A stretch of 64,000 nucleotides of DNA from Aestuariivita sp. (GCF_021404545.1 NZ_JAAWWD010000008.1:11109-75108); one strand, 5' to 3'; counted from the stretch's first letter, positions 607-15,783 are shown. The notes: generated from the sequence alone by a model not told the origin. Program-made: numbers and translations.

Positions 607-1020
607 ATGGCCCAGGACGCCTTTGAGGAACTTGTCGAGGATTTCGAATTTCTGGATGAATGGGAAGACCGTTACCGGTATGTGATCGAGCAGGGCAAGG
701 CGATGCGCCCGCTCGAAGACGCGCTCAAGGTGCCTGCCACCAAGGTGACGGGATGCGCCAGTCAGGTCTGGTTGCATCCGGTGATCAATGACGGACGGTT
801 GCATTTCGATGGCGAAAGCGATGCGATGATCGTAAATGGATTGATCGCGGTTCTCCGCAGGCTCTATAACGGGTTGGCGCTTGCCGAGGTGCTGGAGGTT
901 GATGCACGCGCCGAAATGGGCCGTTTGGGGTTGAACGATCATCTCTCGGCGCAGCGCTCAAATGGGCTGAAGTCGATGATAGCGCGGATCCGCGAGGTGG
1001 CAGCGGCCGAGTTGGCCTGA
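607..1020 (+). CDS. sufE: SufE family Fe-S cluster assembly sulfur acceptor
   Basis: FEFLDEWEDRYRYVIEQG, KVTGCASQVWL and SAQRSNGL motifs; ATG 607 after GGGA. Confidence 0.9.
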   Translation: MAQDAFEELVEDFEFLDEWEDRYRYVIEQGKAMRPLEDALKVPATKVTGCASQVWLHPVINDGRLHFDGESDAMIVNGLIAVLRRLYNGLALAEVLEVDARAEMGRLGLNDHLSAQRSNGLKSMIARIREVAAAELA

Positions 1021-1028
1021 GCCGGTTT

Positions 1029-1082
1029 CGAATTTTCCTGCGAAAAATCCGACCGGCCAAAATCCTTATCTAAGGATTTTGG
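1029..1082. repeat. Tandem hairpin doublet between convergent sufE and DUF1638 genes (REP-like or terminator)
   Basis: Imperfect CGAATTTTC-ctgc-GAAAAATCCG then perfect CCAAAATCCTTA-tc-TAAGGATTTTGG (1057-1082). Confidence 0.6.
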
Positions 1083-2704: not shown

Positions 2705-3811
2705 ATGACCATGCCTGTCCCGCCTGCCAAAATAAACGATCATCCGACGATCGCGCCCGAACGCAGACGGGCGCGCGGCGCGCGGCAGAACATCTCCGGC
2801 CGGTTCGATCTGGAACGGGTGGAGGAGGCAGACGGGTGGGACATGCCCGAAGAGCGTCCGGCCTTTCGCACCCAGATCAGTTTCGAGCGTCCGCGCAGCC
2901 TGATCAGCTATAACCGTTCACCCGATCTGCCATTCGACCGGTCGATCAATCCCTACCGCGGCTGCGAGCATGGGTGCATCTATTGCTTTGCCCGCCCCAG
3001 TCATGCCTATCTCGGCCTTTCTCCGGGCCTGGATTTCGAGACACGGCTGATTGCCCGGCCCGATGCCCCTAACGTGCTCGGCCGCGAGCTGTCCGCAAAA
3101 CGCTACCGCGTCGCACCGATTGCCATTGGCACCAATACCGATCCCTATCAGCCTTGCGAGGCGGATCTGTCGATCACGCGCGCCTGTCTTGAGGTGCTGT
3201 CCGCCTTCCGACATCCGGTGGCGATCGTGACCAAAGGCACATTGATCGAGCGGGATATAGATATCCTGGCGCCAATGGCGGCGCAGGGGCTGGCACGGGT
3301 GGGTGTCTCGCTGACCAGCCTTGATCCTGATCTGTCGCGTCGGATGGAACCGCGCGCGCCGACCCCCAAGCGCCGTCTCGCGACGATCCGCGCGCTCAGC
3401 CAGGCGGGGATCCCGGTGCGGGTCATGACCTCGCCTGTGGTGCCTGGATTGACGGATCATGAGATCGAGGCGCTGCTCAAGGCCGGGGCGGAGGCAGGCG
3501 CGTCTACCGCCAGCTGGATCATGTTGCGCCTGCCACGGGACGTGTCAGGTCTGTGGCAGGACTGGCTGGCCGAACACTACCCGGACCGCGCGGGCAAGGT
3601 CATGGCGCGTCTGCGCGAGATGCATGGCGGGCGCGATTATGATCCGCGCTGGGGCCACCGGATGCGGGGGGAGGGCAAGTATGCCGAACTGATCGCGCAG
3701 AGGTTCAAGGTGCATGCGCGCAAGCTGGGTCTGGATGACACTGCCGAACCGCTGCGGACGGATCTTTTTGCGATCCCGCCGCGCAAGGGCGATCAACTCA
3801 GCCTCTTTTAG
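2705..3811 (+). CDS. PA0069/SplB-like radical SAM protein
   Basis: SINPYRGCEHGCIYCFARPSH (CxxxCxxC), GTNTDPYQP and TKG motifs. Confidence 0.9.
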   Translation: MTMPVPPAKINDHPTIAPERRRARGARQNISGRFDLERVEEADGWDMPEERPAFRTQISFERPRSLISYNRSPDLPFDRSINPYRGCEHGCIYCFARPSHAYLGLSPGLDFETRLIARPDAPNVLGRELSAKRYRVAPIAIGTNTDPYQPCEADLSITRACLEVLSAFRHPVAIVTKGTLIERDIDILAPMAAQGLARVGVSLTSLDPDLSRRMEPRAPTPKRRLATIRALSQAGIPVRVMTSPVVPGLTDHEIEALLKAGAEAGASTASWIMLRLPRDVSGLWQDWLAEHYPDRAGKVMARLREMHGGRDYDPRWGHRMRGEGKYAELIAQRFKVHARKLGLDDTAEPLRTDLFAIPPRKGDQLSLF

Positions 3812-4044: not shown

Positions 4045-4130
4045 GCCCAAGTGGCGGAATGGTAGACGCAGGGGATTCAAAATCCCCCGCCTTTGCGGGC
4101 GTGCCGGTTCGAGTCCGGCCTTGGGTACCA
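4045..4130 (+). tRNA. tRNA-Leu(CAA)
   Basis: Acceptor stem GCCCAAG/CTTGGGT; anticodon arm GGGGA-TTCAAAA-TCCCC; long variable arm; GGTTCGAGTCC T-arm; encoded CCA. Confidence 0.95.
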
Positions 4131-4167
4131 ATGGCTTAGCGGGTATTGGCTTGGCCCGAAGACCCCG

Positions 4168-4190
4168 CACTCCCATAGGCCACTCCCATA
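4168..4190 (+). repeat. Direct repeat CACTCCCATA x2, putative integrase arm-type sites
   Basis: Identical 10-mers at 4168-4177 and 4181-4190 between the tRNA end and the integrase stop. Confidence 0.5.
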
Positions 4191-4219
4191 CTCACGTTTC
4201 GTTTTCGTTCTGTTCCGAT

Positions 4220-5275
4220 TCAGGTTTCGCGCTTTCTCTGCCCGCTACGGGACAGTTTCTTACGGTTCGCCACCTTTCGATAGTACGCGATCATTTCCAC
4301 ACTTTGGTTGGTGATCGCCTGAATTTGGGCGTCGGTGCACCCCCCCTCGGCCAATTGCACTATCGCCAGTTTGCGCAACCCGTGCAGGACATACTTTGAA
4401 GCCTTGGCTTCGAGGGAGGCCCGCCACTTACGGAAAGCCTTTTCGACCGCATCATAGCCAACCGGTTCAGTCAAATTCTTTGCAATCACGAACGCGCCGG
4501 ACTTCCCGCGGTTGGCCAAGTAGCCACGCAAGCGATCCGGGCAATAGACCTCGAATTTCTCGGTACCTTTTTCGTCCAGGACCCACATCCACTCGCCTGA
4601 GAAATCGTCCTGCCGCATTGTGATCGCGGCGTTTGGGCGCTGTCCGGTGCCAAGGATTAACTCTGCGGCGCATTGGACCACCTCTGGCGCTGTCGGGAGC
4701 TTTTCAATCATCCAGTCAGGCCACGGCTCCCATTCTTTTTGCCGTCCGTAGAGGTCGATCTTTGCCGCCGGGTTCTTCTTGCCCTGCATTGGCCAGTCTT
4801 GCTTGTGTTCCGCGTAGTTCCACAACATGCGAACGGTGGTGATCAGCTTGTCAGCCTTGCGGGGCCTGTCGGCGTATTTGGAGTGCATGGCGCGAACCTG
4901 GGCGCGCGTCGTCGTGCGAACGTCCTTGTCTTTGTTCTTCGCCAGGATGAAATCCATGTCGCGGGCGTAGGACAATTTGCTTGATGGTTTCAGCTTCGAC
5001 TGAACGCGGGGATCTGTGCGCCAGAGCTTGACCAACTCGCCCCATGTGTATTTTGCCGGAGCCTTCTGCTTGAGGTGTTGCCCAGCCTCACACAGCCAAT
5101 ACTCATCATCGAGCTTCTTTCTGTCGCCTTCCCACCGCAAAAGGATTGCCCGCTCCTTCGTCTTACCGCCCTGGGTCCATGTGATCCGATGGTAGGGCTC
5201 CCAGACACTTCGGTACCGGTTCCACTTCCATGTGAGGTGAGGTTTGGTAATTCTGGGCTTCGGCTGGCGCTTCAT
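4220..5275 (-). CDS. Phage-type tyrosine integrase
   Basis: LGTGQR (catalytic R), LHGLRK (HxxR) and MIAYY (Y); transcribed toward the tRNA. Confidence 0.9.
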   Translation of the reverse strand: MKRQPKPRITKPHLTWKWNRYRSVWEPYHRITWTQGGKTKERAILLRWEGDRKKLDDEYWLCEAGQHLKQKAPAKYTWGELVKLWRTDPRVQSKLKPSSKLSYARDMDFILAKNKDKDVRTTTRAQVRAMHSKYADRPRKADKLITTVRMLWNYAEHKQDWPMQGKKNPAAKIDLYGRQKEWEPWPDWMIEKLPTAPEVVQCAAELILGTGQRPNAAITMRQDDFSGEWMWVLDEKGTEKFEVYCPDRLRGYLANRGKSGAFVIAKNLTEPVGYDAVEKAFRKWRASLEAKASKYVLHGLRKLAIVQLAEGGCTDAQIQAITNQSVEMIAYYRKVANRKKLSRSGQRKRET

Positions 5276-5481
5276 AGCTCAAAGGGTGCTTCTTGAGGGC
5301 GTGCGGCATCGCCCCTGACGATTGCACGCAAGTCGTCAACAATCCAGCGATCGTGCCCGCCAATGAGTACCGGACCCGGAAGGGAGCCGACCGACACCAA
5401 GCGCAGAAATTCAGCCGTAGGCATGTCCAGCATCCTGGCTGCGTTCCTATCGGATACTGCGATTGGCGTCAGGTCAGCCAT
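5272..5481 (-). CDS. Putative excisionase / AlpA-like HTH protein
   Basis: 69 aa, AARMLDM..GSLPGP...RW pattern; ATGA overlap with the integrase start. Confidence 0.65.
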   Translation of the reverse strand: MADLTPIAVSDRNAARMLDMPTAEFLRLVSVGSLPGPVLIGGHDRWIVDDLRAIVRGDAARPQEAPFEL

Positions 5482-5675
5482 CAGTTGTCCTTTTGCAATT
5501 CCAGCAGTATCGCCAGCGCCGCCTGGTAGTAATCCAAGAAGTTCGGGTGATCGGGTTCAACGGCAATGGTGATCCGGCAATTTTTGTCGCCTTCCACGCG
5601 AACACGATAGCGCGCCGATCCGTTGCGATTTGGGTCTGTTATGAATCCGGGAAGGTCCGCTTTCACTGGCGTCAC
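5481..5675 (-). pseudogene. Truncated N-terminus of a second phage integrase
   Basis: LPGFITDPNRNGSARYRVRVEGDK..ITIAVEPDHPNFLDYYQAA resembles the N-termini of alphaproteobacterial phage integrases (recalled, not searched); ends after 64 aa. Confidence 0.55.
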
Positions 5676-5929
5676 TTCGTTACCCAGTTCTTGGGGTGCA
5701 ACATTGCGGCAGGCGGACGGCCAATGTGCAGTGATTCGTTCCCGTCGCCATTGGGTGTGCCATCACCGGCGTCATCAACCGGATCGATGCCCTTTGTCAC
5801 AAAGGGCACGGTTTCAACGCGGACCGATCCGTCCTTTCTGACTGTTACCGCGCTTGGCGACAGACCGGCAGCCTGTGTCGCTTCGATCGCGCGTTGGATC
5901 GCGGCCTTGGTGACGTTCGGCGCGGGCAT
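5672..5929 (-). CDS. Small phage protein of the type preceding integrases (xis-like)
   Basis: MPAPNVTKAAIQRAIEATQAAGL..VTVRKDGSVRVE; stop overlaps the next start. Confidence 0.55.
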   Translation of the reverse strand: MPAPNVTKAAIQRAIEATQAAGLSPSAVTVRKDGSVRVETVPFVTKGIDPVDDAGDGTPNGDGNESLHIGRPPAAMLHPKNWVTK

Positions 5930-5930
5930 C

Positions 5931-6077
5931 CTAGCCGGTCACGCTCAGGAACTGGATGTCCTTCGCCGGATATGCCCTGCGGATACGGGCTATGGCCGCG
6001 TCGACGGACTCAGCTTTGGTGATATGTTGAACCAAGCCTTCATCGGCCAAATTGATAACGAGCGTGAAGCGTTTCAT
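5931..6077 (-). CDS. 48-aa phage hypothetical protein (not in ORF track)
   Basis: MKRFTLVINLADEGLVQHITKAESVDAAIARIRRAYPAKDIQFLSVTG; AAGGAAG RBS; ATGA overlap with the upstream gene. Confidence 0.55.
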   Translation of the reverse strand: MKRFTLVINLADEGLVQHITKAESVDAAIARIRRAYPAKDIQFLSVTG

Positions 6078-6301
6078 GCGTCTTCCTTTGTCTTCGGTTT
6101 CCAATAGAACGGCGCGGCCTCTGCCACATGGTCGGCGATAATGTCTTTTGTCTTTCGGGCAATCCGGCCATCACCATGGCAGGAATTGCATTTGTGTTTC
6201 TTAGGGTTGCGTGCGCCCCAAAAGAAATCGCGATCGGCGTCGCGGCGCAGCTGGCAGGCGGGGCAATCAAGGCCGTTTCCGCACAGGTACTTATCAGGCA
6301 C
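6074..6301 (-). CDS. Phage hypothetical protein with two CxxC motifs
   Basis: GTG start overlapping the upstream stop; CPAC and CNSCHGDG (DnaJ zinc-finger-like). Confidence 0.55.
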   Translation of the reverse strand: MPDKYLCGNGLDCPACQLRRDADRDFFWGARNPKKHKCNSCHGDGRIARKTKDIIADHVAEAAPFYWKPKTKEDA

Positions 6302-6632
6302 CGCCCCGGTCCTTCCGTGCCCACATATCGATCGTGGCGCTGATGCGGGAAAACACGCCCGCGCCGGGCGTGCCCTTGCGACCACGGTGCATGCGCCACA
6401 CGGTCAGATGGTGGTAGAGTTGCGCGCCGCGATTGCGGGCCATCTTCCACCAGTCCGTCCGACAGGTGCTGTTGCAGAACCGCATGCCGGGCCGGTATGC
6501 CGTAGGATCGATGCGTTCCCGGCAATAGTCACAGTATCCCACGCGCAGCGGGCGAAGCGGCTCTACGTCACCGTGGTCCTTCAATCGGCCACGTGCTGGC
6601 GTTTGAGCCGTTTCTGGGGGCGCATGAGTCAT
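6294..6632 (-). CDS. Phage hypothetical zinc-finger protein
   Basis: CDYC...FCNSTCR motif; ATGA overlap at 6629-6632. Confidence 0.6.
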   Translation of the reverse strand: MTHAPPETAQTPARGRLKDHGDVEPLRPLRVGYCDYCRERIDPTAYRPGMRFCNSTCRTDWWKMARNRGAQLYHHLTVWRMHRGRKGTPGAGVFSRISATIDMWARKDRGGA

Positions 6633-6841
6633 GCGCTTGACGTCTTGCCGGGGCAACCGGGCTGCACGGTCCCGCGCGGACATCCGCAGTCGGGCCATTT
6701 CGGACACTCAAAAACGGGCAAGCAATCATCCGCCCCTTTGGGCGCACGGGGGCCGATCACGGCCCGATTGGTGATACCCCCGCGCTCCCCGGTTCGGGCT
6801 GGCCTGAACAGCCCTCGGATACGCGGCATCACGCGGAGCAT
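6629..6841 (-). CDS. Small Cys-rich phage hypothetical protein
   Basis: CPKWPDCGCPRGTVQPGCPG; fits a coupled gene chain. Confidence 0.4.
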   Translation of the reverse strand: MLRVMPRIRGLFRPARTGERGGITNRAVIGPRAPKGADDCLPVFECPKWPDCGCPRGTVQPGCPGKTSSA

Positions 6842-7101
6842 TGCGCCGCCTCAGCGTCATTTGCTTCCAGGATGTTGAGAGCCGCTTTCAACCAGTTCTT
6901 GGGCAAGTCTTTGGCATCGTCAGCAAAGCAGGACACTTGCCACAGCGATATCTCAAAGAGCACTGGATTGTATTGCCGGGGATCATCCGGCACGGTCCAG
7001 ACACCGTTGTTCTGGCACAGGTTTTTGATCTGTAGGAACTGGGTGTCCGTGGACATGGCTTCGAGCCATTCGACGGTTGTGCGGATCCTGTCGATGTCCA
7101 T
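6829..7101 (-). CDS. Phage hypothetical protein
   Basis: 90-aa ORF with GGGA-type RBS, globular composition, in a coupled chain. Confidence 0.6.
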   Translation of the reverse strand: MDIDRIRTTVEWLEAMSTDTQFLQIKNLCQNNGVWTVPDDPRQYNPVLFEISLWQVSCFADDAKDLPKNWLKAALNILEANDAEAAQCSA

Positions 7102-7113
7102 AAGAACGGTCCC

Positions 7114-7443
7114 TTATTGTGCCCTAAAATTGATCCCGCCATAACCGGCATGATCGGAGTTGTTTCGGATCGTGTTTGCAGGCGGATTCTTCGCCCACCT
7201 TTTTTCGTCGTGTCTGGCCATGGCGCGCCGCTCTTCTGGCGTGGCGTGTTCACAGGTGATCGCGTGGTTTTCGCCTGCCGACAGGATGAACCCAAGCTGC
7301 CCAGACCCGTGCCTGTTGTAGACGCGCCAGTACCGACCGCAGAAAGGACATTGGGCCTCTGTGTTCGACAGCTTGCTTATCCTGCGCTCATTTCGAAACT
7401 CAGCCTTCGCAGCACGATCTTTCGCCCGTTCGCGCCGCTGTCG
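7114..7443 (-). pseudogene. 5'-truncated phage ORF (CPFCG motif)
   Basis: Open frame RQRRERAKDRAAKAEFRNERR...QCPFCGRYWRVY...INFRAQ*; no upstream start before an in-frame stop; begins at the junction with the tail-fibre fragment. Confidence 0.4.
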
Positions 7444-7466
7444 ACCTCTATAACGCCCGTCGCGAT

Positions 7467-8360
7467 TTGGGGGAGGCCATCGCCATCTCGGCCCAGGACA
7501 TGCGGGCGCTGGTCGTCGAGGATCGGGTGGCGATTGCCAGCCTCGAAACCTTACTCGCAGCCGCGATCAACAACACCGCCGCATCGCTCAAGTCCGAGCA
7601 GCTGGTGCGATCCGAGGCCGACGATGCCCTTGCCCAGGATATCGTGACCGTAAAGGCCAGTTTGGAAAGCGCGGAGGGCGATATCGCCGCGAACGCCACG
7701 GCGACCAGCGACCTCGCTGTTCGGACAACGGCGGCCGAGGGCGCGATCACCAGTCAGGGCCAGAGCATCGATACGCTTCAGGCCGGGCTGACCACCGCGC
7801 AAGGCAACATTGCTGCGAACGCCACGGCCACCAACAACCTCGCTGTTCGGACAACGGCGGCCGAGGGCGCGATCACCAGCCAGGGCCAGAGCATCGATAC
7901 GCTTCAGGCCGGGCTGACCACCGCGCAAGGCAACATTGCTGCGAACGCTACGGCCACCAGCGACCTCGCTGTTCGGACAACGGCGGCCGAGGGCGCGATC
8001 ACCAGCCAGGGCCAGAGCATCGATACGCTTCAGGCCGGGCTGACCACCGCGCAAGGCAACATTGCTGCGAACGCCACGGCCACCAGCGGATTGACGGTCC
8101 GCACCACGGACGCCGAGAATCAGTTGGCGAGCCAGGCAACGCAGCTTACCAGCCTCACCTCGACCGTGGGCGCGCAATCCACGACGATCCAGTCGCAGCA
8201 GACCTCGATCGATGGCATCGAGGCGGAATACGCCCTGCGTATCGACAATAACGGTGTCGTCTCCGGCGTCGTGGTCCGCTCCGATCTGGACAACGCAGGT
8301 GTGCCCACAACGGCTGCGGTCTATCAGGTCGACAAGTTCTCGATCATCGCGCCGGGCGAT
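7467..8360 (+). pseudogene. Internal fragment of phage central tail fibre / host-specificity protein (gpJ-like, DUF1983-like C-terminal part)
   Basis: Ala/Thr-rich heptad repeats followed by GIEAEYALRIDNNGVVSG...VYQVDKFSIIAPG; lacks a proper N-terminus; C-terminus runs out of frame into methylase DNA. Confidence 0.7.
7689..8088 (+). repeat. Three near-identical 126-bp (42-aa) tandem repeats plus a partial fourth
   Basis: GCGAACGC[C/T]ACGGC units start at 7689, 7815, 7941 and 8067. Confidence 0.97.
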
Positions 8361-8833
8361 CCATCCGCCTCCTCTATCTGCAACGCCTGGCCTTCGGGGG
8401 GAGGGCGGACGGGGTCTTTGGTGTGGCAACCGGAAGGACGCTCTTCTCGCTGTCGCGATTGGAGCCTCTTTTGGATGCCGCGCATGCGCGGCTGGATGGT
8501 GTGGTCCTCGAAAACCTGGACTGGTCCGAGCTGGTGCGGCGCTATGACAGTTCCGGTTCTCTGTTCTACCTCGATCCACCTTATTGGGGCGGGGAAGACG
8601 ATTACGGCAAGGATCTCTTCCAAAGACCCGATTACGCCAGGATGGCTGCCCAATTGGCCGACATCGAGGGCGCGTTCGTGCTCTCCATCAATGACCGGCC
8701 CGAAACGCGCGCTCTGTTTGCGTCATTTGAGATCGAGGCTGTGTCGCTGAAATACAGCGTGTCCCGGGGGGACGCGACCGACGCGGCCGAGTTGCTTATC
8801 TCCAACCGCAAACCCGACGACCTGCTGCTGTGA
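8357..8833 (+). pseudogene. C-terminal half of a Dam-like (D12 class) DNA adenine methyltransferase
   Basis: Continuous frame RSIRLLYLQRLAFGG...VVLENLDW...LFYLDPPYW (motif IV)...FVLSIND...ELLISN; N-terminal SAM-binding motif absent. Confidence 0.85.
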
Positions 8834-8876
8834 TCGGGGTGTTTTCTAGTTGGTGGTGTCAGTGCCATGATGGGGC

Positions 8877-9203
8877 ATGTCCGAATTCACAATGCGCCCA
8901 TGCCGGATCGGCGGCCGAACAGCGCCGAATGACTACCTTGTCTCGTACCAGGGCAGCCCAATTGGCCGCATCTTTCATCAAGAACTCGGCTTTGCGCGGT
9001 GGTGGATTTGGGCGATCCAGACCTTTCCGGCAGCAGATGGCCGATCAGACACGCTTGAACAGGCGCAGGCGCAGCTCAAGGCGGCTGTGCTTGCTTTGCC
9101 CGACGGTAGGAGGATCAAGGCGGAGGGGAGGGTGGCCACCCTCGCGTGTCCGCTTAGCGCAGAAACTGGACTTTGCAAAGTCAAGATCACTCGGCCCCTC
9201 TGA
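8877..9203 (+). CDS. Small phage-associated hypothetical protein; C-terminus probably altered
   Basis: IGGRTAPNDYLV..G.PIGRIF....WWIW...G.SDTLEQAQAQLKAA; last ~20 codons run through palindrome cluster 1. Confidence 0.5.
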   Translation: MSEFTMRPCRIGGRTAPNDYLVSYQGSPIGRIFHQELGFARWWIWAIQTFPAADGRSDTLEQAQAQLKAAVLALPDGRRIKAEGRVATLACPLSAETGLCKVKITRPL

Positions 9204-9382
9204 AGGCAAGGACGGTTCATTCCTGCCGTACACCTGGTATGTAAGACGCTGCAGTGCGGCCCGTCATCCCGACATTCGCTGCGATCGCAAAATGCGCAGT
9301 TGTTCGAACTCACAGTCTGCGGGACTTAGCCGCCGTCCGTCGACCCCCTTCGAATGGCCGGGTTCGACGCACCCGCGTGTTC
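9148..9382. repeat. Cluster 1 of degenerate ~24-30-bp palindromes (4-5 units), putative recombination sites
   Basis: GTCCGCTTAGCGCAGAAACTGGAC (9148-9171); GCTGCAGTGCGGCCCGTCATCCCGACATT (9248-9276); CACAGTCTGCGGGACTTAGCCGCC (9311-9334); GGCCGGGTTCGACGCACCCGCGTG (9356-9379). Confidence 0.55.
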
Positions 9383-9386
9383 GCTG

Positions 9387-10325
9387 TCATGTGTGCACAA
9401 CATGTCGATCACTGCTTTTCGCTCCGCCATAGGCCACAAGTATCGCACCGGTGACGTAGATAATCAGGCCGGTCATCGTTGCGGGGGCATAATCAACGCG
9501 ACCTTCGATGAGCTGGAATAGAAAGACGAAAAGCGGGCCGAGAGCGGTAATCGCGGCGAGGGTCAAGGTAGACATCAGCGAGATTGCCTTCTGCATCGCA
9601 AAGACCGGGAACGCCATGATGACAAATCCGATCAGAACCACGATCATCAAACCGCTCGGATCGACGGGGCCTTTCTCATCGAAACCGAGCGAGGCCCCTG
9701 CGAGTGCGACCGCCACATAGAGCGGAAACCGCAGTCCATATTGCGCGACGGGAGAGACACCCAGACGGTTGAGCCGCTGACTATAGATCATCATGGCAGC
9801 GAGGCTTGCCCCTGAGATACAGGTCAGCAGCAATCCAGTCAGTGCAACTGTCCAGTCTCCTCTCACAAAGCCAGACCTGCCGAGGATGGTGATCGCCGCG
9901 AGATAACCGACACCGATCACAATGATGAGCAAGCCCGCGCCTTCAGTGCGGTTTCGCAGCGGCGATGCTCCCGGAACGCCAAGGGCCCAGGCGATCAGAA
10001 TAGCGACCGGGATCAGACCCGAGAAGATCGTGAACACGACCGCCGGTTCGATCATCTGAAGCGCGAAGAAATAGGCGATCCATACAAAGGCAGTCGACAG
10101 GTTCAGGCCAAAGAGAGCAGCGCCGTTACCCCATGCGATACGCAGTTCATCTGCGGCACGGATACCTGTCCATGTAAGAGCGCCCAAGGCGGTGAAGCCA
10201 AAGACGGCTGCTCCGATCAGAAAGGAATCGTAGCCCTGAAACACACCCCCGAAGAACACGGCCTGCGCCGCTTCCAGAATGACAAAGGAGAAGGCCCAGA
10301 TAAGGCCGAGGGTTGTGTTGCTCAT
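9387..10325 (-). CDS. EamA/DMT-family membrane transporter
   Basis: 312 aa with about 10 hydrophobic segments in a two-repeat pattern; divergent from an Lrp regulator. Confidence 0.8.
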   Translation of the reverse strand: MSNTTLGLIWAFSFVILEAAQAVFFGGVFQGYDSFLIGAAVFGFTALGALTWTGIRAADELRIAWGNGAALFGLNLSTAFVWIAYFFALQMIEPAVVFTIFSGLIPVAILIAWALGVPGASPLRNRTEGAGLLIIVIGVGYLAAITILGRSGFVRGDWTVALTGLLLTCISGASLAAMMIYSQRLNRLGVSPVAQYGLRFPLYVAVALAGASLGFDEKGPVDPSGLMIVVLIGFVIMAFPVFAMQKAISLMSTLTLAAITALGPLFVFLFQLIEGRVDYAPATMTGLIIYVTGAILVAYGGAKSSDRHVVHT

Positions 10326-10425
10326 GTCGAGGTTCCGTCGCTTTTTCGTAGACTTACGACAAAAGCAATGGAAAGTGTGGTCAAAATCTTCGATATTTTG
10401 GAGTTATGAACCACGGGAGGCGGAC

Positions 10426-10896
10426 ATGACCATGGATGCTCTGGATCTTCGGATCGTCGCTGCTCTTCAAGCGAACGGCTCCCTGACGAAGGCAGAACTG
10501 GCGGAGGCGGTCGGGTCAACACCATCGACCTGTCTGCGGCGCGTCGCCGAGCTACGCCACGCCGGGGTGCTCATAAACTGTGTCTATTTGGCCGATCCTG
10601 CCAAACTCGGGCGGGGCATCCGGGCCATCATCACGGTCACGACCCGGAATCACACTAAGGACCTGCGCACCTCTTTCTCATCCCGCATCTCAGAAGAACC
10701 AGCAATCACGCAAGCCTATGGCGTGACAGGTGAGCTTGACGCGGTTCTGATCGGCCATTTCAACGATATGGAAGAGTATCAGGGACTTTGTGATCGGCTT
10801 TTTGATAGCGACCCAGACGTGGTGCGCTACACGACGCTGTTTGCAGTTGAGACCTATAAGGAGACAACCACTGTTGAACCGGCCGTCATCGGGTAA
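10426..10896 (+). CDS. Lrp/AsnC family transcriptional regulator
   Basis: MDALDLRIVAALQANG..ELAEAVG.TPSTCLRRV HTH plus RAM domain (YGVTGELD); GGGAGG RBS. Confidence 0.9.
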   Translation: MTMDALDLRIVAALQANGSLTKAELAEAVGSTPSTCLRRVAELRHAGVLINCVYLADPAKLGRGIRAIITVTTRNHTKDLRTSFSSRISEEPAITQAYGVTGELDAVLIGHFNDMEEYQGLCDRLFDSDPDVVRYTTLFAVETYKETTTVEPAVIG

Positions 10897-10950
10897 GCAG
10901 TCATTAGAACATCTCGCAGCGTTCAGCACTTTGGGCTCGGAGCCGACCTC
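10879..10950. repeat. Cluster 2 of degenerate palindromes
   Basis: ...GGGTAAGCAGTCATT (contains the Lrp stop codon) and CAGCACTTTGGGCTCGGAGCCGAC (10924-10947). Confidence 0.5.
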
Positions 10951-11036
10951 AGATGCGACGCAGCATGTTGTGATACACTGCCTCGTCAACGTCGGGTTGG
11001 CGTTGCGGCGGGGCGTGGTGGATTGGAGGACCCACC

Positions 11037-11669
11037 ATGCGCATCCCGAATTTACCCGCCATTCGCGCCTGTCGCCCTGCTTGGAACAAAGGGCGCATCG
11101 TCGGCCAGAAAAGGCCCTTGCTGCCGAAACACGTCTGGGCGATCCGTGTTCGATTAGATATCGCGGACAATTTCCGTGACCTAGCGCTCTTCAACCTTGC
11201 CATCGACAGCAAGCTGCGCGGTTGTGATCTGGTCAAACTTGTGGTGGCCGACGTTTATGCCGCTGGTCAGGTAAAAGAACGAACATCAATCATCCAAAGC
11301 AAAACGCAAAAGCCGGTGCGTTTCGAGATTACGGAAGGAACTCGAAAATCACTCCTGAGGTGGATGGAGGAACCATTGATGGTCGGTTCGGAATACCTCT
11401 GGCCCGGGCGTTTTCACGAGCGCCTTCACATCTCGACACGGCAATACGCACGACTGGTCCGCGAATGGGTCAAGTCGATTGGGCTGGAGCCAAGTGCGTA
11501 TGGCACCCACTCGATGCGCCGAACCAAGGTTTCGCAGATTTACAAGAAGACCGGTAATCTGCGGGCGGTTCAACTGTTGCTGGGGCAAACAAAGATGGAC
11601 AGCACGGTCCGATATCTTGGAGTCGAATTGGAAGATGCCTTAACAATCTCGGAATCCGTTGAAATCTGA
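11037..11669 (+). CDS. Compact tyrosine recombinase (essentially catalytic domain only)
   Basis: PAWNKGRIVGQKRPL N-terminus, SKLRGCDLV (R), HSMRRTK (HxxR), LLGQTKMDSTVRYLG (Y); GGAGG RBS. Confidence 0.9.
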   Translation: MRIPNLPAIRACRPAWNKGRIVGQKRPLLPKHVWAIRVRLDIADNFRDLALFNLAIDSKLRGCDLVKLVVADVYAAGQVKERTSIIQSKTQKPVRFEITEGTRKSLLRWMEEPLMVGSEYLWPGRFHERLHISTRQYARLVREWVKSIGLEPSAYGTHSMRRTKVSQIYKKTGNLRAVQLLLGQTKMDSTVRYLGVELEDALTISESVEI

Positions 11670-11675
11670 AAATCA

Positions 11676-11697
11676 GGGCCGCCTTCGCGGGCGGCCC
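11676..11697 (+). terminator. GC hairpin directly after the recombinase stop
   Basis: GGGCCGCC-ttcgcg-GGCGGCCC; no clear U-tract. Confidence 0.45.
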
Positions 11698-11756
11698 ATA
11701 GCTGCCTTTGGCTAATACATCTCAATGCTGCGGTCGCAGCCCGCATCTCGGACATT
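11683..11756. repeat. Cluster 3 of degenerate palindromes
   Basis: ...CCCATAGCTGCCTTT (to 11709) and GCTGCGGTCGCAGCCCGCATCTCGGACATT (11727-11756), a close match to 9248-9276. Confidence 0.6.
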
Positions 11757-11761
11757 AGTCA

Positions 11762-12409
11762 TCATGCAGCCATATAGGTTTTTAGTTGAACCTGGTTATC
11801 CAAAGCGTCCCCAAACATTCGCATCAAAGCGATGGTTGTGTTTGTGACTTCATCTAAGTCGTCTTTCGCAATGAAGGTGTCTTCACCATGGGCAATCGCA
11901 TTGCGCCGTTTCAGAAGCATTGCATCAATAAAGGCCTCATGTTCAATGAATTCTTGGTAAGAAATGTCGCAAACCAAACATATCTCTCGTAGCACCTCAG
12001 AATTTAAGTTCGATTTGGTGTTGATCAGATCATCGTTCACTCGACTGAACTGCTTGTTTGAGGACGTAAGGATTTCATCTAGAAGGTTACACCTCGACTC
12101 GATACTGCCCTTGCTCTTCGATAGCGCCGTCAGCCGCGGCAAAAAGTAGTTCTTCAAAAACTGACTGTTGAGACTTGTGTATGGATGCTTACGCAAAGCG
12201 ACATGTATCAAATACAGTTTTGCAGAATTTCTCACATGACCCTCCCAATGAGCATATGAGATTGTAACTAGTGCCCTTAGCAGGACTTTCCCCAAGTTCT
12301 GATCTGCCCTTCGAATCGCGGTCTTTAGATCCGATATCTCGCGGATACGCCAAGTCCTGTCCGCGGTTACAAGACTCGAGAAGTCGTCCGCGGTATATGG
12401 CTTGCTCAT
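11762..12409 (-). CDS. HEPN-domain nuclease (MAE_28990/MAE_18760-like)
   Basis: YAHWEG N-terminal motif, NTKSNL, and RNAIAHGE (RxxxxH) motif; ATGA overlap with the DUF262 gene. Confidence 0.8.
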   Translation of the reverse strand: MSKPYTADDFSSLVTADRTWRIREISDLKTAIRRADQNLGKVLLRALVTISYAHWEGHVRNSAKLYLIHVALRKHPYTSLNSQFLKNYFLPRLTALSKSKGSIESRCNLLDEILTSSNKQFSRVNDDLINTKSNLNSEVLREICLVCDISYQEFIEHEAFIDAMLLKRRNAIAHGEDTFIAKDDLDEVTNTTIALMRMFGDALDNQVQLKTYMAA

Positions 12410-13515
12410 GGCTTGAACCACTCGCTACCAAAAGGCACTGTTTTCTGAATCCGCGTTGTTCCGCGCATGCCGGGTGACACGAAACTTTCAACGTCTGGCT
12501 GCTCCCAAAATGCCTGAGACTTGTCCCGCACAAAATTTGCCGGGTCTGCCTGCTGCTGTATTGCCGTAAGGTTCTTTGCGACTCCTACTGCGATCGCTTC
12601 TAAGCCCACCAGTCCTACCCTTCCAGAGTAGTTTCCATCTTGGAAACGCCGGAGAGCATTCCCGCCCGCGGCTTGATGCAGAAGGTCTATAGTGCTGTTG
12701 ATAGTCGTGGAGGCTCCGGCAATATCAGCGTCCATCGCCAATTTTACGATACCGTCGTCTATGTATTCGCCAACGTCTAGGGTTCCATCGTAATTTACCA
12801 AAGTGTGAACCAGCAATCTTACCGCCATCTCAATGTGTCGTTGCTTTTCTGTTTGACCGTCGCTCAGGCCCGTTACCGAAAGAAATTTGTCACTCTCAGC
12901 CGCGGCTTTAATCGCCCTAAAGTAGTCAGCATTGACCATCAAAATTATGCAATTTCGTATCTCTTGGGCGTTCGCGGCCGTCCCCCCAGCATTTAGTCGT
13001 TGAAACAGGTCAAACTTCGTCATGCTATCGCTCGGACGCTTGAGGATTTCTACTCCAATGCGAGACCTCTTGATGGCTAGCTGAAGGCTTCGATCAAGTT
13101 CGAGTTGTTCATTCTCTTCCACGTCAGCAATTGCTGCGCCTTTTTCCCAAACTGTATTGCGGAGCGACGGCAGGTATTTTGTTGCTTCCAAGATGGATGG
13201 TGGGCAGGCCGCGCCATTTTCGTTTTTCAATTTACCCATGAACTCAAGGATTGATGAAACCCTCTGCAGCCCGTCTACGAGCTCCCACTGCCCGTTTTCT
13301 AGCTCGTAGACGAAGATAGATGGCAGAGGAATGCCCAGCAGCAGAGACTCGATCAATTTTGATTTCTGGCCTATTTCCCATCTAAACAGTCGTTGGAATT
13401 CCGGAGCAATTATTATGTCGCCGTCATCGTAGAGATTCACAAGCTCACCAATAGACATCTGAAAGGCGTCTGTACGAACATTCCGTTGTGCGGTTTCGAT
13501 TTCTTCAAGTAGCAT
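12406..13515 (-). CDS. DUF262 (ParB/Srx-like, GmrSD N-terminal) domain protein
   Basis: PEFQRLFRW, LIESLLLGIPLPSIF, VDGLQR and FQRLNAGG motifs; start at MLLEEI. Confidence 0.88.
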   Translation of the reverse strand: MLLEEIETAQRNVRTDAFQMSIGELVNLYDDGDIIIAPEFQRLFRWEIGQKSKLIESLLLGIPLPSIFVYELENGQWELVDGLQRVSSILEFMGKLKNENGAACPPSILEATKYLPSLRNTVWEKGAAIADVEENEQLELDRSLQLAIKRSRIGVEILKRPSDSMTKFDLFQRLNAGGTAANAQEIRNCIILMVNADYFRAIKAAAESDKFLSVTGLSDGQTEKQRHIEMAVRLLVHTLVNYDGTLDVGEYIDDGIVKLAMDADIAGASTTINSTIDLLHQAAGGNALRRFQDGNYSGRVGLVGLEAIAVGVAKNLTAIQQQADPANFVRDKSQAFWEQPDVESFVSPGMRGTTRIQKTVPFGSEWFKP

Positions 13516-13732
13516 TCGTTTCCCAGCTTCCTTGGTGTTGCATGTAAAAGAGAAGCGTCGCCGCATCTCAATGAGGAAGTACCCGCCAGACATGTCTTCT
13601 GTCACGTTCAGCCATTATGACCACATAAACCGCTGCCGCAATATCTGCACTCCCAAACGGTATTTTTAGCATCGCTTAAGCGAGCGTCTGGTTTCACAGA
13701 ATGACCAAGATCACTCCGCAGCCGCAGCAAAC

Positions 13733-13897
13733 GACCGCTACCCGCCGCGACCTGCATGTGCCCGTTGGCCAACTGATCACTCGGTTTGGGTCTGCTTCGG
13801 GCTGGCTGCGGACACCTGCCCACGCACAGTAAGGGCGTGAATGGCGCTCGCAGTTCAAAATCCGCGCGCTGCGTTGCCGCAAGGCGGCAGAGAGCCC
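13733..13897. repeat. Cluster 4 of degenerate palindromes
   Basis: GACCGCTACCCGCCGCGACCTGCA (13733-13756); GTCTGCTTCGGGCTGGCTGCGGAC (13790-13813); half unit GGCGGCAGAGAGCCC (13883-13897) abutting an IS end. Confidence 0.55.
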
Positions 13898-14450
13898 ATT
13901 TTGTTGAAGAAGTCGCCGAGATTTGAGGTTTTGCCTGCTTGGCGACTTCAATCGCAAGCTTCTTGATCCGCCCGTTGCATTGGGCGGCTTGTTGGTCTGT
14001 CGTTTTGCCGTTTCAGATCATATCGCGATCCTCGTTTCGTGCGTCTTGGGTCTTAGTTTTGCAAGTTTTCGGAGGTTCTGAGCGATTGCTGCGAGCGTAA
14101 ATTCGTCCTGTACACCACATGGCCCTCGAAGTCTGAGCCGCCCGAGGCCGAGAATGCGTTTGAGGTGAGCGAAGAGCATCTCAACCTTTTTGCGTTTGGC
14201 CTGGGCCTTGGGGTTGAAGGGAGACTTTGCAGCCAGTCGGGCGAAGTCGCGTGCGTCCTCGTGTTCCTCACGACCGATAAAGCGCGTATTTGTGTTTGGA
14301 CAGCATTTTGGTTTCGACGGGCAGGCATCGCATATGGCTTTGGTGGCGCGGTATCTACGGCGACCTGTTTTGGGTTCTTTTCTGCGCGGGTCGGCATCAA
14401 AACCGACCTTTCTTGGTGGGTTTGTTGTGCAAGTGGATGACCAGGGCGGG
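13898..14450 (-). mobile_element. IS1182-like remnant: transposase C-terminal fragment plus probable terminal IR
   Basis: CDACPSKPKCCP...RKKVEMLFAHLKRILGLGRLRLRG...FTLAAIAQNLRKLAK; IR-like GACTTCTTCAACAAAAT on the minus strand at 13898-13914; 5' part missing. Confidence 0.75.
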
Positions 14451-14630
14451 ACCTTCCCGTCGCTCTCTATGTCTACAGACTCCAATATGCTATAGTTGAT
14501 GTAATTGGCCCGTTCGTGCCGGGACGACCGATGGCGCGGGTTGAAATCTGAACAAAGCGATTGGTGCATAGGGTTCTCAAACACACCAGATGCTCAGCTA
14601 GAAATCTTGAAGACTTTAGGATTAGTTGCG

Positions 14631-14957
14631 TTGTCGAAGAAGATTTTATTTTGCATTGCCGCAATAATCGCAGTGTTTACTTCTGCCCTTAAGGCGGAAA
14701 CGGTAGTCGAGTTTGGGTGCATACTTCTCGACACAGATCACCCGGACGTGGATCGAGACTGGACGGAAGCATTTGTTCCATTCTGTGATATCAGACCGGA
14801 CCAATCGGTAGTCCAATGCTATGCTCTAACGTTCGAAGGGGAATGGGAAGCGACTGATGCTTTTGCGCCAGACCTAGTTCTGGACAGACAAGAGGGTGGC
14901 AAAAGACTTTGCCCTGCAGGGACGGACGATGGAAAACTCCCAACCATCCGTGGATGA
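14631..14957 (+). CDS. Small secreted Cys-containing hypothetical protein
   Basis: TTG start; signal peptide SKKILFCIAAIIAVFTSALKA; four Cys in the mature part. Confidence 0.55.
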   Translation: MSKKILFCIAAIIAVFTSALKAETVVEFGCILLDTDHPDVDRDWTEAFVPFCDIRPDQSVVQCYALTFEGEWEATDAFAPDLVLDRQEGGKRLCPAGTDDGKLPTIRG

Positions 14958-15783
14958 CCCGAAGCCCGAGATTGGCGGGTCGGAGGATGCAGTAGCCATC
15001 CCCAAGATCGAAGTCAGACTGACGTCCGATCCATCCCCGCCGTCATTCGCTTCGCGCCTGACTTCTGCCATCGCCCCCATTCTTCTAGTCGGGGGGTACA
15101 TCGGCGCGTTGCTGCTGAGCCTTGGATGGAGCTTTGCTTGGCATTGGTTCGCGACTTGGAACGTGCCTTTCACAAGCCTTGGCGTAGGTCCTGATGTACT
15201 TCTGGAATACGGACGTATCGTTGTTCTACATCACTGGTGGCAATTTCTAGTATGGGTCGCCCTTGGCGTTGCGGGGATGTGGGCGATCATTTACCTCAAT
15301 CTTGGCAAAGGGTTCCTTACTCTATTTTGTCTCTCTACATTTCTGGTTCCGTGGCTTGCCAGTCATTCTTTTGGCAAGCGGTTGGCCGACGCCGAGGTCC
15401 AGCAGATACAGCGGGAACGGTTTGTTGGACTGCCCGTCGTGAACCTATACCTCGAACCTGGGCTTGATGAGGCGCTGAACGAACGAGCGCGAGCTGCTCT
15501 CGTCACGGGTCCCAACTTGTGTCACCGGTTGCTGTACAAGGCACTAGATGGGCTTTGGCTTTTGCGATTGCCCCGGTATCGGCCGACCCTTCGGCGTGTC
15601 AGCCCAATACAATCACTTCCTTCGCACGCTCTTTCAGGATCGCGCAGATCTGGGCGGCCAGTTCCCGAAACTCGGCCTCGCGCGCGGTGCCCTTTCGCCA
15701 GATCATTCCAATGGTTCGCGACGGCGGAGAGCCGCGAAACTGGCGCGCGACGACGATGTCCTGATGCGCCACCTCGGATTTGA
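14929..15783 (+). CDS. Hypothetical multi-pass membrane protein; C-terminus overlaps the lysR 3' end (probably truncated near 15.6 kb)
   Basis: About three hydrophobic helices (LLVGGYIGALLLSLGW..., WWQFLVWVALGVAGMW..., LTLFCLSTFLVPWL); alternative GTG start at 14950. Confidence 0.55.
   Translation: MENSQPSVDDPKPEIGGSEDAVAIPKIEVRLTSDPSPPSFASRLTSAIAPILLVGGYIGALLLSLGWSFAWHWFATWNVPFTSLGVGPDVLLEYGRIVVLHHWWQFLVWVALGVAGMWAIIYLNLGKGFLTLFCLSTFLVPWLASHSFGKRLADAEVQQIQRERFVGLPVVNLYLEPGLDEALNERARAALVTGPNLCHRLLYKALDGLWLLRLPRYRPTLRRVSPIQSLPSHALSGSRRSGRPVPETRPRARCPFARSFQWFATAESRETGARRRCPDAPPRI

Follow-up and report, generated by a model that had tools for sequence, protein, structure and literature searches.

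The window analysed here, a 64,000-nucleotide stretch of the Aestuariivita sp. genome (GCF_021404545.1, NZ_JAAWWD010000008.1:11109-75108), carries between positions 9203 and 13750 what are probably three cassettes in an array, belonging to a site-specific gene-cassette system widespread in the family Rhodobacteraceae. Cassette A holds an eamA transporter gene and an lrp regulator, cassette B a small tyrosine recombinase, and cassette C a HEPN-DUF262 gene pair. The site that delimits them is specific to recombinase loci and oriented with the recombinase, the boundaries at its boxes are sharp and recurrent, and the same three cassettes are found with other neighbours in other genera. By sequence comparison, the small recombinase would be the catalyst, the exact crossover point would lie between a hexamer and the AnAGC bases of the box, and cassettes would pass through circular intermediates. 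An initial annotation of this DNA had proposed that a recombinase other than IntI shuffles cassettes delimited by ~24-bp palindromes. Independent comparative evidence supports such a recombinase working with cassette-delimiting sites, but the site is not a ~24-bp palindrome.

The composite site and the recombinase unit

The site profile has 160 positions and was built for nhmmer from 57 related sites; a first profile, obtained by iterated nhmmer searches seeded with window positions 9240-9345, recovered ~100 copies around recombinase loci. The site is a composite element of ~150 bp with three directly repeated ~20-bp boxes, GG(C/G)(C/A)(C/T)C-AnAGCnG(A/C)C-nTTCG, and a dyad, GCTGC-N3-GCAGC, between boxes 1 and 2. 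Its right half exists in two or more variants. In the window there is one full site, S1 (9203-9356, plus strand; nhmmer E-value 1.4e-27, model positions 5-159). It comprises box 1 at 9213-9233 (CGGTTCATTCCTGCCGTACAC, with a position weight matrix (PWM) hit at 9213), the dyad at 9248-9260 (GCTGCAGTGCGGC), box 2 at 9256-9278, which ends in CATTCG, a type-A segment (GAACTCACAGTCTG), and box 3 at 9320-9340 (CGGGACTTAGCCGCCGTCCGT, PWM hit at 9320). An inverted box follows at 9351-9362 (CGAATGGCCGGG). A left half-site, S3, lies on the plus strand at 11680-11756 (E-value 9e-12, model positions 3-79), and has the best box of the window (11692-11712, CGGCCCATAGCTGCCTTTGGC; PWM score 25.3 bits), a dyad at 11727-11740 (GCTGCGGTCGCAGC) and a CATTAG end at 11753-11758. 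Between them stands a single junction box (10933-10949, plus strand, GGGCTCGGAGCCGACCT), at which the homology with related loci starts or stops. It is preceded by a degenerate partial site that overlaps the lrp stop codon (10873-10932, plus strand, CGGCCGTCATCGGGTAAGCAGTCATTAG...CGCAGCGTT). This partial site was not significant on its own with the half-site hidden Markov model (HMM), and it moves with cassette A: the same string follows lrp in the related loci L111, L112 and L113.

The Aestuariivita genome (4.8 Mb) has just 6 significant copies of the site. Its two recombinase loci, in the window and on contig C24, account for 4; another is at the end of a contig, and the last is partial. Around the recombinase, 152 copies were found in 856 kb from 82 homologous loci, and 139 of them have the same orientation as the recombinase gene, with 13 in the opposite one. 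The assembly also breaks at sites. Contig C24 ends within a site, 104 bp past the second recombinase copy, and contig C22 begins with one (978-1060, minus strand).

The possibility that the site acts as a folded strand, as attC does, was considered and dropped, because both the RNAalifold and the covariation tests were negative. RNAalifold returned no consensus pairs for 55 sites, and the GCTGC-N3-GCAGC dyad exhibited no covariation, with 70.8% of its cells paired versus 70.3% in shuffled alignments. An Rfam scan of positions 8800-14200 at E<=1 gave no match.

The recombinase gene is itself the core of cassette B, a unit of ~768 bp (10933-11697, plus strand). The unit begins with the junction box and a 104-nt leader (10933-11036), continues with the 210-amino acid open reading frame (ORF; 11037-11669, plus strand) and ends in an 8-6-8 palindrome (11676-11697, GGGCCGCC-TTCGCG-GGCGGCCC) whose right arm is the box hexamer. 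In 76 copies, position 7 of the palindrome is T:A in 38, C:G in 26 and unpaired in 12, so that a Watson-Crick pair is kept in 64 of the 76. A transcription terminator is retained merely as an alternative reading of this palindrome, because no U tract follows it. The sole Pfam match of the protein is PF00589 (9.7e-14, residues 44-195); Pfam detected no N-terminal DNA-binding domain, and a sequence search of the PDB gave no match at 1e-3.

Proteins 83-97% identical to the window recombinase occur in >500 genomes from many Rhodobacterales genera. The second copy of this genome, on contig C24, is 82% identical, and the whole unit is 96.9% identical to its counterpart in Roseovarius albus. When 66 loci were aligned with 400-bp flanks, conservation extended from ~10927 to ~11706 of the window and decayed thereafter, with a longer downstream element in many loci. 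Units of different genomes that share at least 92% identity formed 20 pairs; in 11 of them the left end fell at -104 to -107 relative to the ATG, and in 18 the right end fell at +25 to +43 past the stop codon. A site starts ~12 bp past the recombinase stop in 51 of 76 copies, and 22 of these 51 sites are also cut near model position 80, as S3 is. No recombinase was found in a scan of viral contigs, and hence it is not regarded as a phage integrase.

Shortened and distant relatives of the unit were also observed. In Roseovarius aestuarii (L068, 7594-7680) there is a miniature recombinase cassette in which the junction box and the first ~40 leader nucleotides are fused to a palindrome-like end; the ORF is missing, which gives it the appearance of a deletion derivative in the style of a miniature inverted-repeat transposable element. 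Homologues of ~55% identity are present on 366 plasmid records, including those of Enterobacteriaceae, Pseudomonas, Cupriavidus and rhizobia, where they are annotated merely as integrase. One of them is a ~200-amino acid "site-specific integrase" of 55.8% identity on the E. coli IncY plasmid pEco-CTX-M-15 (L085, 6992-7594), and this protein occurs on plasmids of E. coli, Shigella, Klebsiella, Salmonella and Pantoea.

Cassette borders, cargo and distribution

The initial annotation had treated [eamA-lrp], [recombinase] and [HEPN-DUF262] as separate modules, and this was borne out: each recurs in other genera, with homology ending at the boxes. Cassette A (9320-10949) extends from box 3 of S1 to the junction box. 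In Boseongicola sp. H5 (L111) it is 94% identical over window positions 9319-10945 with unrelated flanks, and only boxes are present there, neither side having a detectable site. Its context in that genome resembles an integrative and conjugative element, with a relaxase and other transfer genes alongside. In a TARA contig (L112) the cassette is 83% identical over 9328-10949, and its flanks, again unrelated, contain box fragments, and its genes are 78% identical in two further contigs. The relatives came from a protein database search; among 401 genomes of the family, eamA has just 2 distant homologues.

The junctions of cassette A could be aligned. On the left, unrelated sequence runs up to the hexamer (CGGGAC, CGGGAG or CGAACG); at the right end the aligned copies share TGGGCTC, after which come AnAGCCGAC-like bases that vary with the context. 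The hexamer is thus kept by one cassette and AnAGCnGAC by its neighbour, and it is from these aligned junctions that the crossover would map between the hexamer and AnAGC. The mechanism that we propose is as follows. A recombinase with only a catalytic domain detectable, whose gene is itself a mobile ~768-bp cassette, would join cassettes at the boxes by a crossover within the short stretch that separates the hexamer from AnAGC, where a weak inverted repeat, (G)ACGG...CCGAC, surrounds a spacer of ~7 bp. Integration would occur when a circular cassette with one box recombines with a box of the array, and excision when two directly repeated boxes recombine and the segment between them is lost.

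Arrays in other genomes have borders of the same type. Paracoccus onubensis (L009) carries five co-oriented sites, at 3354, 5053, 6690, 8776 and 10480, which separate modules encoding DUF6880, GNAT, the recombinase, VWA+HXXEE and DUF6880. Its two DUF6880 modules share 99% identity across 1,700 bp, from the point between CGG and CCC in box 1 of one site to that of the next, and a cassette pair in L068, 98% identical over 1,016 bp, is likewise bounded between CGG and CCC of box 1. Both pairs are recent whole-cassette duplications. Breakpoints were also mapped in site-containing segments at least 88% identical. The left ends cluster at model position 15, and the right ends lie at positions 20-34 in 18 of 38 cases and at 80-89 in 9, with a smaller cluster near 125. 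Modules do end at sites, but at the ~20-bp boxes, and not at a 24-bp palindrome.

An array was also seen on the complete, 226-kb Phaeobacter inhibens plasmid pP92_b (L084, 7237-15765). Its sites, at 7237, 13873 and 15645, bracket a 6.5-kb block (a phosphoesterase gene, four ABC-transporter genes and a LysR gene), an alpha/beta hydrolase gene and the recombinase, and the first of them comes after a TniQ-family gene.

Cassette C (11698-13732, minus strand) is a two-gene candidate anti-phage module, composed of a HEPN RiboL-PSP gene (11762-12421, minus strand; Pfam HEPN_RiboL-PSP, 1.4e-36) and a DUF262/GmrSD_N gene (12406-13515, minus strand; Pfam). The DUF262 protein matched the PADLOC models NsnA (1.5e-52) and PD-T4-2_A (6.1e-33); its HEPN partner matched no PADLOC model. 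The longest DUF262 ORF, with a GTG start (12406-13605, 399 amino acids), is probably too long, since nearly all homologues have 369 amino acids, a length that places the start at 13515. The GC content of the cassette is 49-52%, versus ~61% for the genome. In the window, its left border coincides exactly with the point where the recombinase palindrome ends. A copy 86.6% identical over window positions 11701-13732 is found in Tateyamaria sp. ANG-S1 (L103, 5783-7815), as part of an array whose sites lie at 1075, 1709, 3396 and 5728. More distant copies (72%) lie between core genes with site fragments alongside.

In a survey of the marine bacterial family Rhodobacteraceae, with one genome per genus, 151 genera and the recombinase called at E<=1e-40, the site was present in 110 of the 151 genera (~70%). 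The recombinase was found in 47 genomes, and 45 of these have the site. In genomes without the recombinase, the sites form same-orientation arrays of ORFs with low GC content at third codon positions (GC3), and one array that lacks an intact recombinase retains its first 40 codons. A class-wide survey detected the site in just six of ~200 other families. The cargo of 38 cassettes consists of varied accessory metabolism and regulators (LysR, AraC, oxidoreductases, an MFS transporter, hydrolases); 36 of the cargo ORFs point the same way as the sites and 25 the opposite way. Cassettes reach about 6.5 kb.

Competing explanations and the genomic setting

Several observations weigh against a site-specific cassette system run by this recombinase. 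The site is also present in 65 of the 104 genomes in which the recombinase was not called, in some with 15-28 or more copies, which makes the association of enzyme and site a statistical one and not an absolute one. Compared with the orientation of the sites in the Tateyamaria array, cassette C lies inverted, and only an approximate right border (13732-13750) can be given for it. The end boxes of cassette A differ in their centre (GACTTAG versus CTCGGAG), which does not fit a simple integration of circles through identical overlaps, and the box is not the clean inverted repeat that tyrosine recombinases usually bind. The breakpoint clusters near positions ~80 and ~125 could possibly reflect several crossover points or homologous exchange within the site. 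Finally, the local recombinase carries the change H184Q (codon 11586-11588; LLGQTK), which is probably damaging: a His occupies this position in 117 of 120 database homologues, in 82 of 84 locus copies and in the copy on contig C24. Residue 184 is the conserved His/Trp of the tyrosine-recombinase catalytic pocket, and because a near-invariant His is replaced there, the local enzyme may be impaired or inactive, or may depend on the C24 copy.

Some of these points would be expected if the ~150-bp element were a lineage-specific intergenic repeat that serves as portable homology, with modules swapped by RecA-dependent recombination and the recombinase a passenger or a resolving enzyme for something unrelated. 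Sites in genomes free of the recombinase, breakpoints at several site positions (~15-20, ~57, ~80 and ~125) and a cassette whose end boxes differ in their central bases all speak for it. We nevertheless consider this unlikely. Breakpoints pile up at the box hexamers instead of spreading through the site, and 11 of 20 left ends of the recombinase unit lie within 4 bp of one another. Furthermore, in Boseongicola H5 cassette A has only the boxes and no detectable site on either side, and portable homology leaves both the 139:13 orientation bias and the site that follows the gene in 51 of 76 copies unexplained. The recombinase might instead be a 768-bp selfish element, similar to an insertion sequence (IS), which targets the box and moves only itself; the other modules would have come to the same repeat by unrelated routes, the repeat being no more than a preferred landing pad. 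Its unit is indeed the one most often repeated and with the sharpest borders, several genomes have multiple copies, miniature and truncated derivatives occur, and many of the metagenomic contigs that carry it are just 0.8-1.4 kb long. Recombinase-free cargo cassettes, however, have the same type of border at the same boxes and recur as units in other genera, and no other mobility gene moves with them; a purely selfish element thus appears rather improbable.

The literal proposal of the initial annotation, that about 11 stacked, imperfect ~24-bp palindromes in four clusters are the core sites of the recombinase and scars of past insertions, has very little probability left. Its right half-motif, GCNG[AC]C, does coincide with the GCnG(A/C)C of the box, and one of its examples (10924-10947) spans the true junction box. 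The consensus G[GTA]CNGCT-N8-12-GCNG[AC]C, however, has a single exact match in 64 kb (13790-13813, itself one of the examples given in that annotation), and allowing up to 2 substitutions gave 189 matches in 64 kb with just 6 in 9100-13950, which is no enrichment. Palindrome density is ordinary: the clusters contain 3 inverted repeats (5-bp stem, 8-14-nt loop) in 546 bp, versus 4.8 +/- 2.8 in segments taken at random from the window. Nothing conserved corresponds to the examples at 9148-9171 and 13790-13813 in 82 related loci, and a generic repeat finder returned chance-level repeats only for 8800-14100. The count of about 11 units was not reproduced. Neither the 57-site profile nor half-site HMMs detected anything significant in clusters 2 (10879-10950) and 4 (13733-13897). 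The literal 24-bp motif is not a real feature, and the idea that stacked sites are scars of past events is a conjecture.

Other elements of that annotation fared better. Two of its four clusters are real: 9148-9382 holds the full site and 11683-11756 the left half-site. Cluster 10879-10950 contains the junction box, and the fourth is not a demonstrable site. It belongs to a residual spacer (13733-13913) with box-like strings at 13803-13823 (GGCTGCGGACACCTGCCCACG) and 13866-13905 (GCGCTGCGTTGCCGC...CCCATTTTG), which has no significant likeness to the site (HMM E-values ~1 or worse) and no relatives in the compared loci or in the rest of the genome. The close copies noticed at 9248-9276 and 11727-11756 are the same part of the site, from the dyad GCTGC-N3-GCRGC to the CATTCG box, and the gene ends said to abut or enter the clusters lie as claimed (eamA stop at 9387, HEPN stop at 11762, lrp stop at 10894-10896). 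The recurrence of GATCACTC[GC]G at 9185, 13709 and 13775, all on the plus strand, was also confirmed. These 3 copies compare with 0.03 expected here, for a motif that was picked after viewing the sequence; the 4.8-Mb genome has 33, and the other 30 lie in unrelated contexts. The copies at 9185 and 13709 have CAAGATCACTC in common.

The array is located within an 11.5-kb variable island. Its left border is a tRNA-Leu(CAA) gene identified by ARAGORN (4045-4130, plus strand). In a second genome of the genus (G003) this tRNA gene lies only 287 bp from the homologue of the sequence from window position 15601 onward, and positions 4131-15600 are therefore an insertion. No tRNA-derived att repeat of at least 11 nt was found at the right border of the island. 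Its left part (4131-8833, or 4220-8833 from the first ORF) is phage-like. That ORF (351 amino acids, minus strand, 4220-5275) comes directly after the tRNA gene; a 427-amino acid, repeat-rich ORF is also present, with three tandem 126-bp repeats at 7634-8136. A truncated D12 methyltransferase fragment (8423-8833; Pfam) and, in the ORF listing, an unassigned 108-amino acid ORF (8877-9203) precede the array. In cassette A, the EamA/DMT transporter gene (9387-10325, minus strand) and the Lrp/AsnC regulator gene (10426-10896, plus strand) were assigned by Pfam. On the right, the array is closed by an IS remnant (14018-14584, minus strand), a DDE transposase fragment represented by a 188-amino acid ORF only (PF13751 DDE_Tnp_1_6, 1.2e-14), for which just 134-137 bp of weak similarity were found elsewhere. 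GC content is 49-56% at 10-15 kb of the window and ~61% elsewhere.

Relation to known systems and significance

Integrons are the main described bacterial system for stocking and shuffling gene cassettes, and they matter for adaptation, resistance and, as recently recognized, phage defence. The array described here works like an integron yet is not one, having come out negative in every test of integron membership that was run. As in integrons and in clusters of attC sites lacking integron-integrases (CALINs), a tyrosine recombinase is associated with arrays of small modules separated by a co-oriented recombination element of 60-150 bp, one cassette is found in different arrays, and the cargo includes small anti-phage systems (here a candidate). 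Arrays often outlast an intact recombinase in both cases, and the recombinase-free arrays of Rhodobacteraceae resemble CALINs. The differences are as clear. The recombinase is not IntI: it scores 16.1 bits against the NCBIfam model TIGR02249 (integrase_gron), whose cut-off is 265, and its 210 amino acids are ~110 fewer than the 315 positions of that model. Its gene is itself a cassette, with sites on both sides and varying places in the array, in contrast to a fixed attI/Pc platform. By RNAalifold and covariation, the sites show no folded palindrome of the attC type. The cargo is found in both orientations (36 versus 25), often with LysR or AraC regulators of its own.

Other tyrosine-recombinase systems share single traits with it. 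The pdif modules of Acinetobacter plasmids are flanked by 28-bp XerC-6-XerD sites in alternating orientation, on which the host XerCD acts. They too are discrete accessory modules between tyrosine-recombinase sites, found in varied contexts with no transposase involved, whereas the Rhodobacteraceae system has ~150-bp direct composite sites and a dedicated, travelling recombinase; a dif-like 11-6-11 arrangement was not searched for explicitly. FimB and FimE, which invert one promoter segment between 9-bp inverted repeats at fimS of E. coli, are alike by size and domains, having ~200 residues and no usual N-terminal SAM-like core-binding domain. In the window, by contrast, the boxes at 10933-10949 and 11692-11712, which flank the recombinase unit, are repeated directly on the plus strand, and the outcome would be gene gain, loss or exchange. 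Unlike repetitive extragenic palindromic (REP) sequences and bacterial interspersed mosaic elements (BIMEs), the site has just 6 copies in 4.8 Mb and is not scattered through core intergenic DNA. In a published classification, all tyrosine recombinases are placed in two architectures, a core-binding domain plus a catalytic domain (CB+CAT) or the same preceded by an arm-binding domain (AB+CB+CAT) (PMC8138268). A full-text literature search, together with that study, yielded no description of this cassette system.

We tentatively suggest, at somewhat less than even confidence, that marine Rhodobacteraceae own a second, integron-independent cassette platform. A catalytic-domain-only recombinase, encoded by a 768-bp cassette, would capture, excise and exchange modules of 0.8-6.5 kb at ~20-bp boxes in a ~150-bp site. 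It would build arrays on chromosomes as well as plasmids, with as many as dozens of sites in one genome, and the arrays would spread defence, transport and catabolic genes across genera. The ~55% identical homologues on plasmids of Enterobacteriaceae, Pseudomonas, Cupriavidus and rhizobia may operate related systems that use different sites. At present these recombinase genes are labelled merely "tyrosine-type recombinase/integrase" or "XerC", which constitutes a common gap in annotation. If the proposal is true, it would provide a new minimal recombinase/site pair for study and possibly for engineering, as well as a means of searching cassette arrays for small defence systems and further adaptive genes, and it would bear on the way in which an ecologically dominant marine group builds up its large flexible genome.

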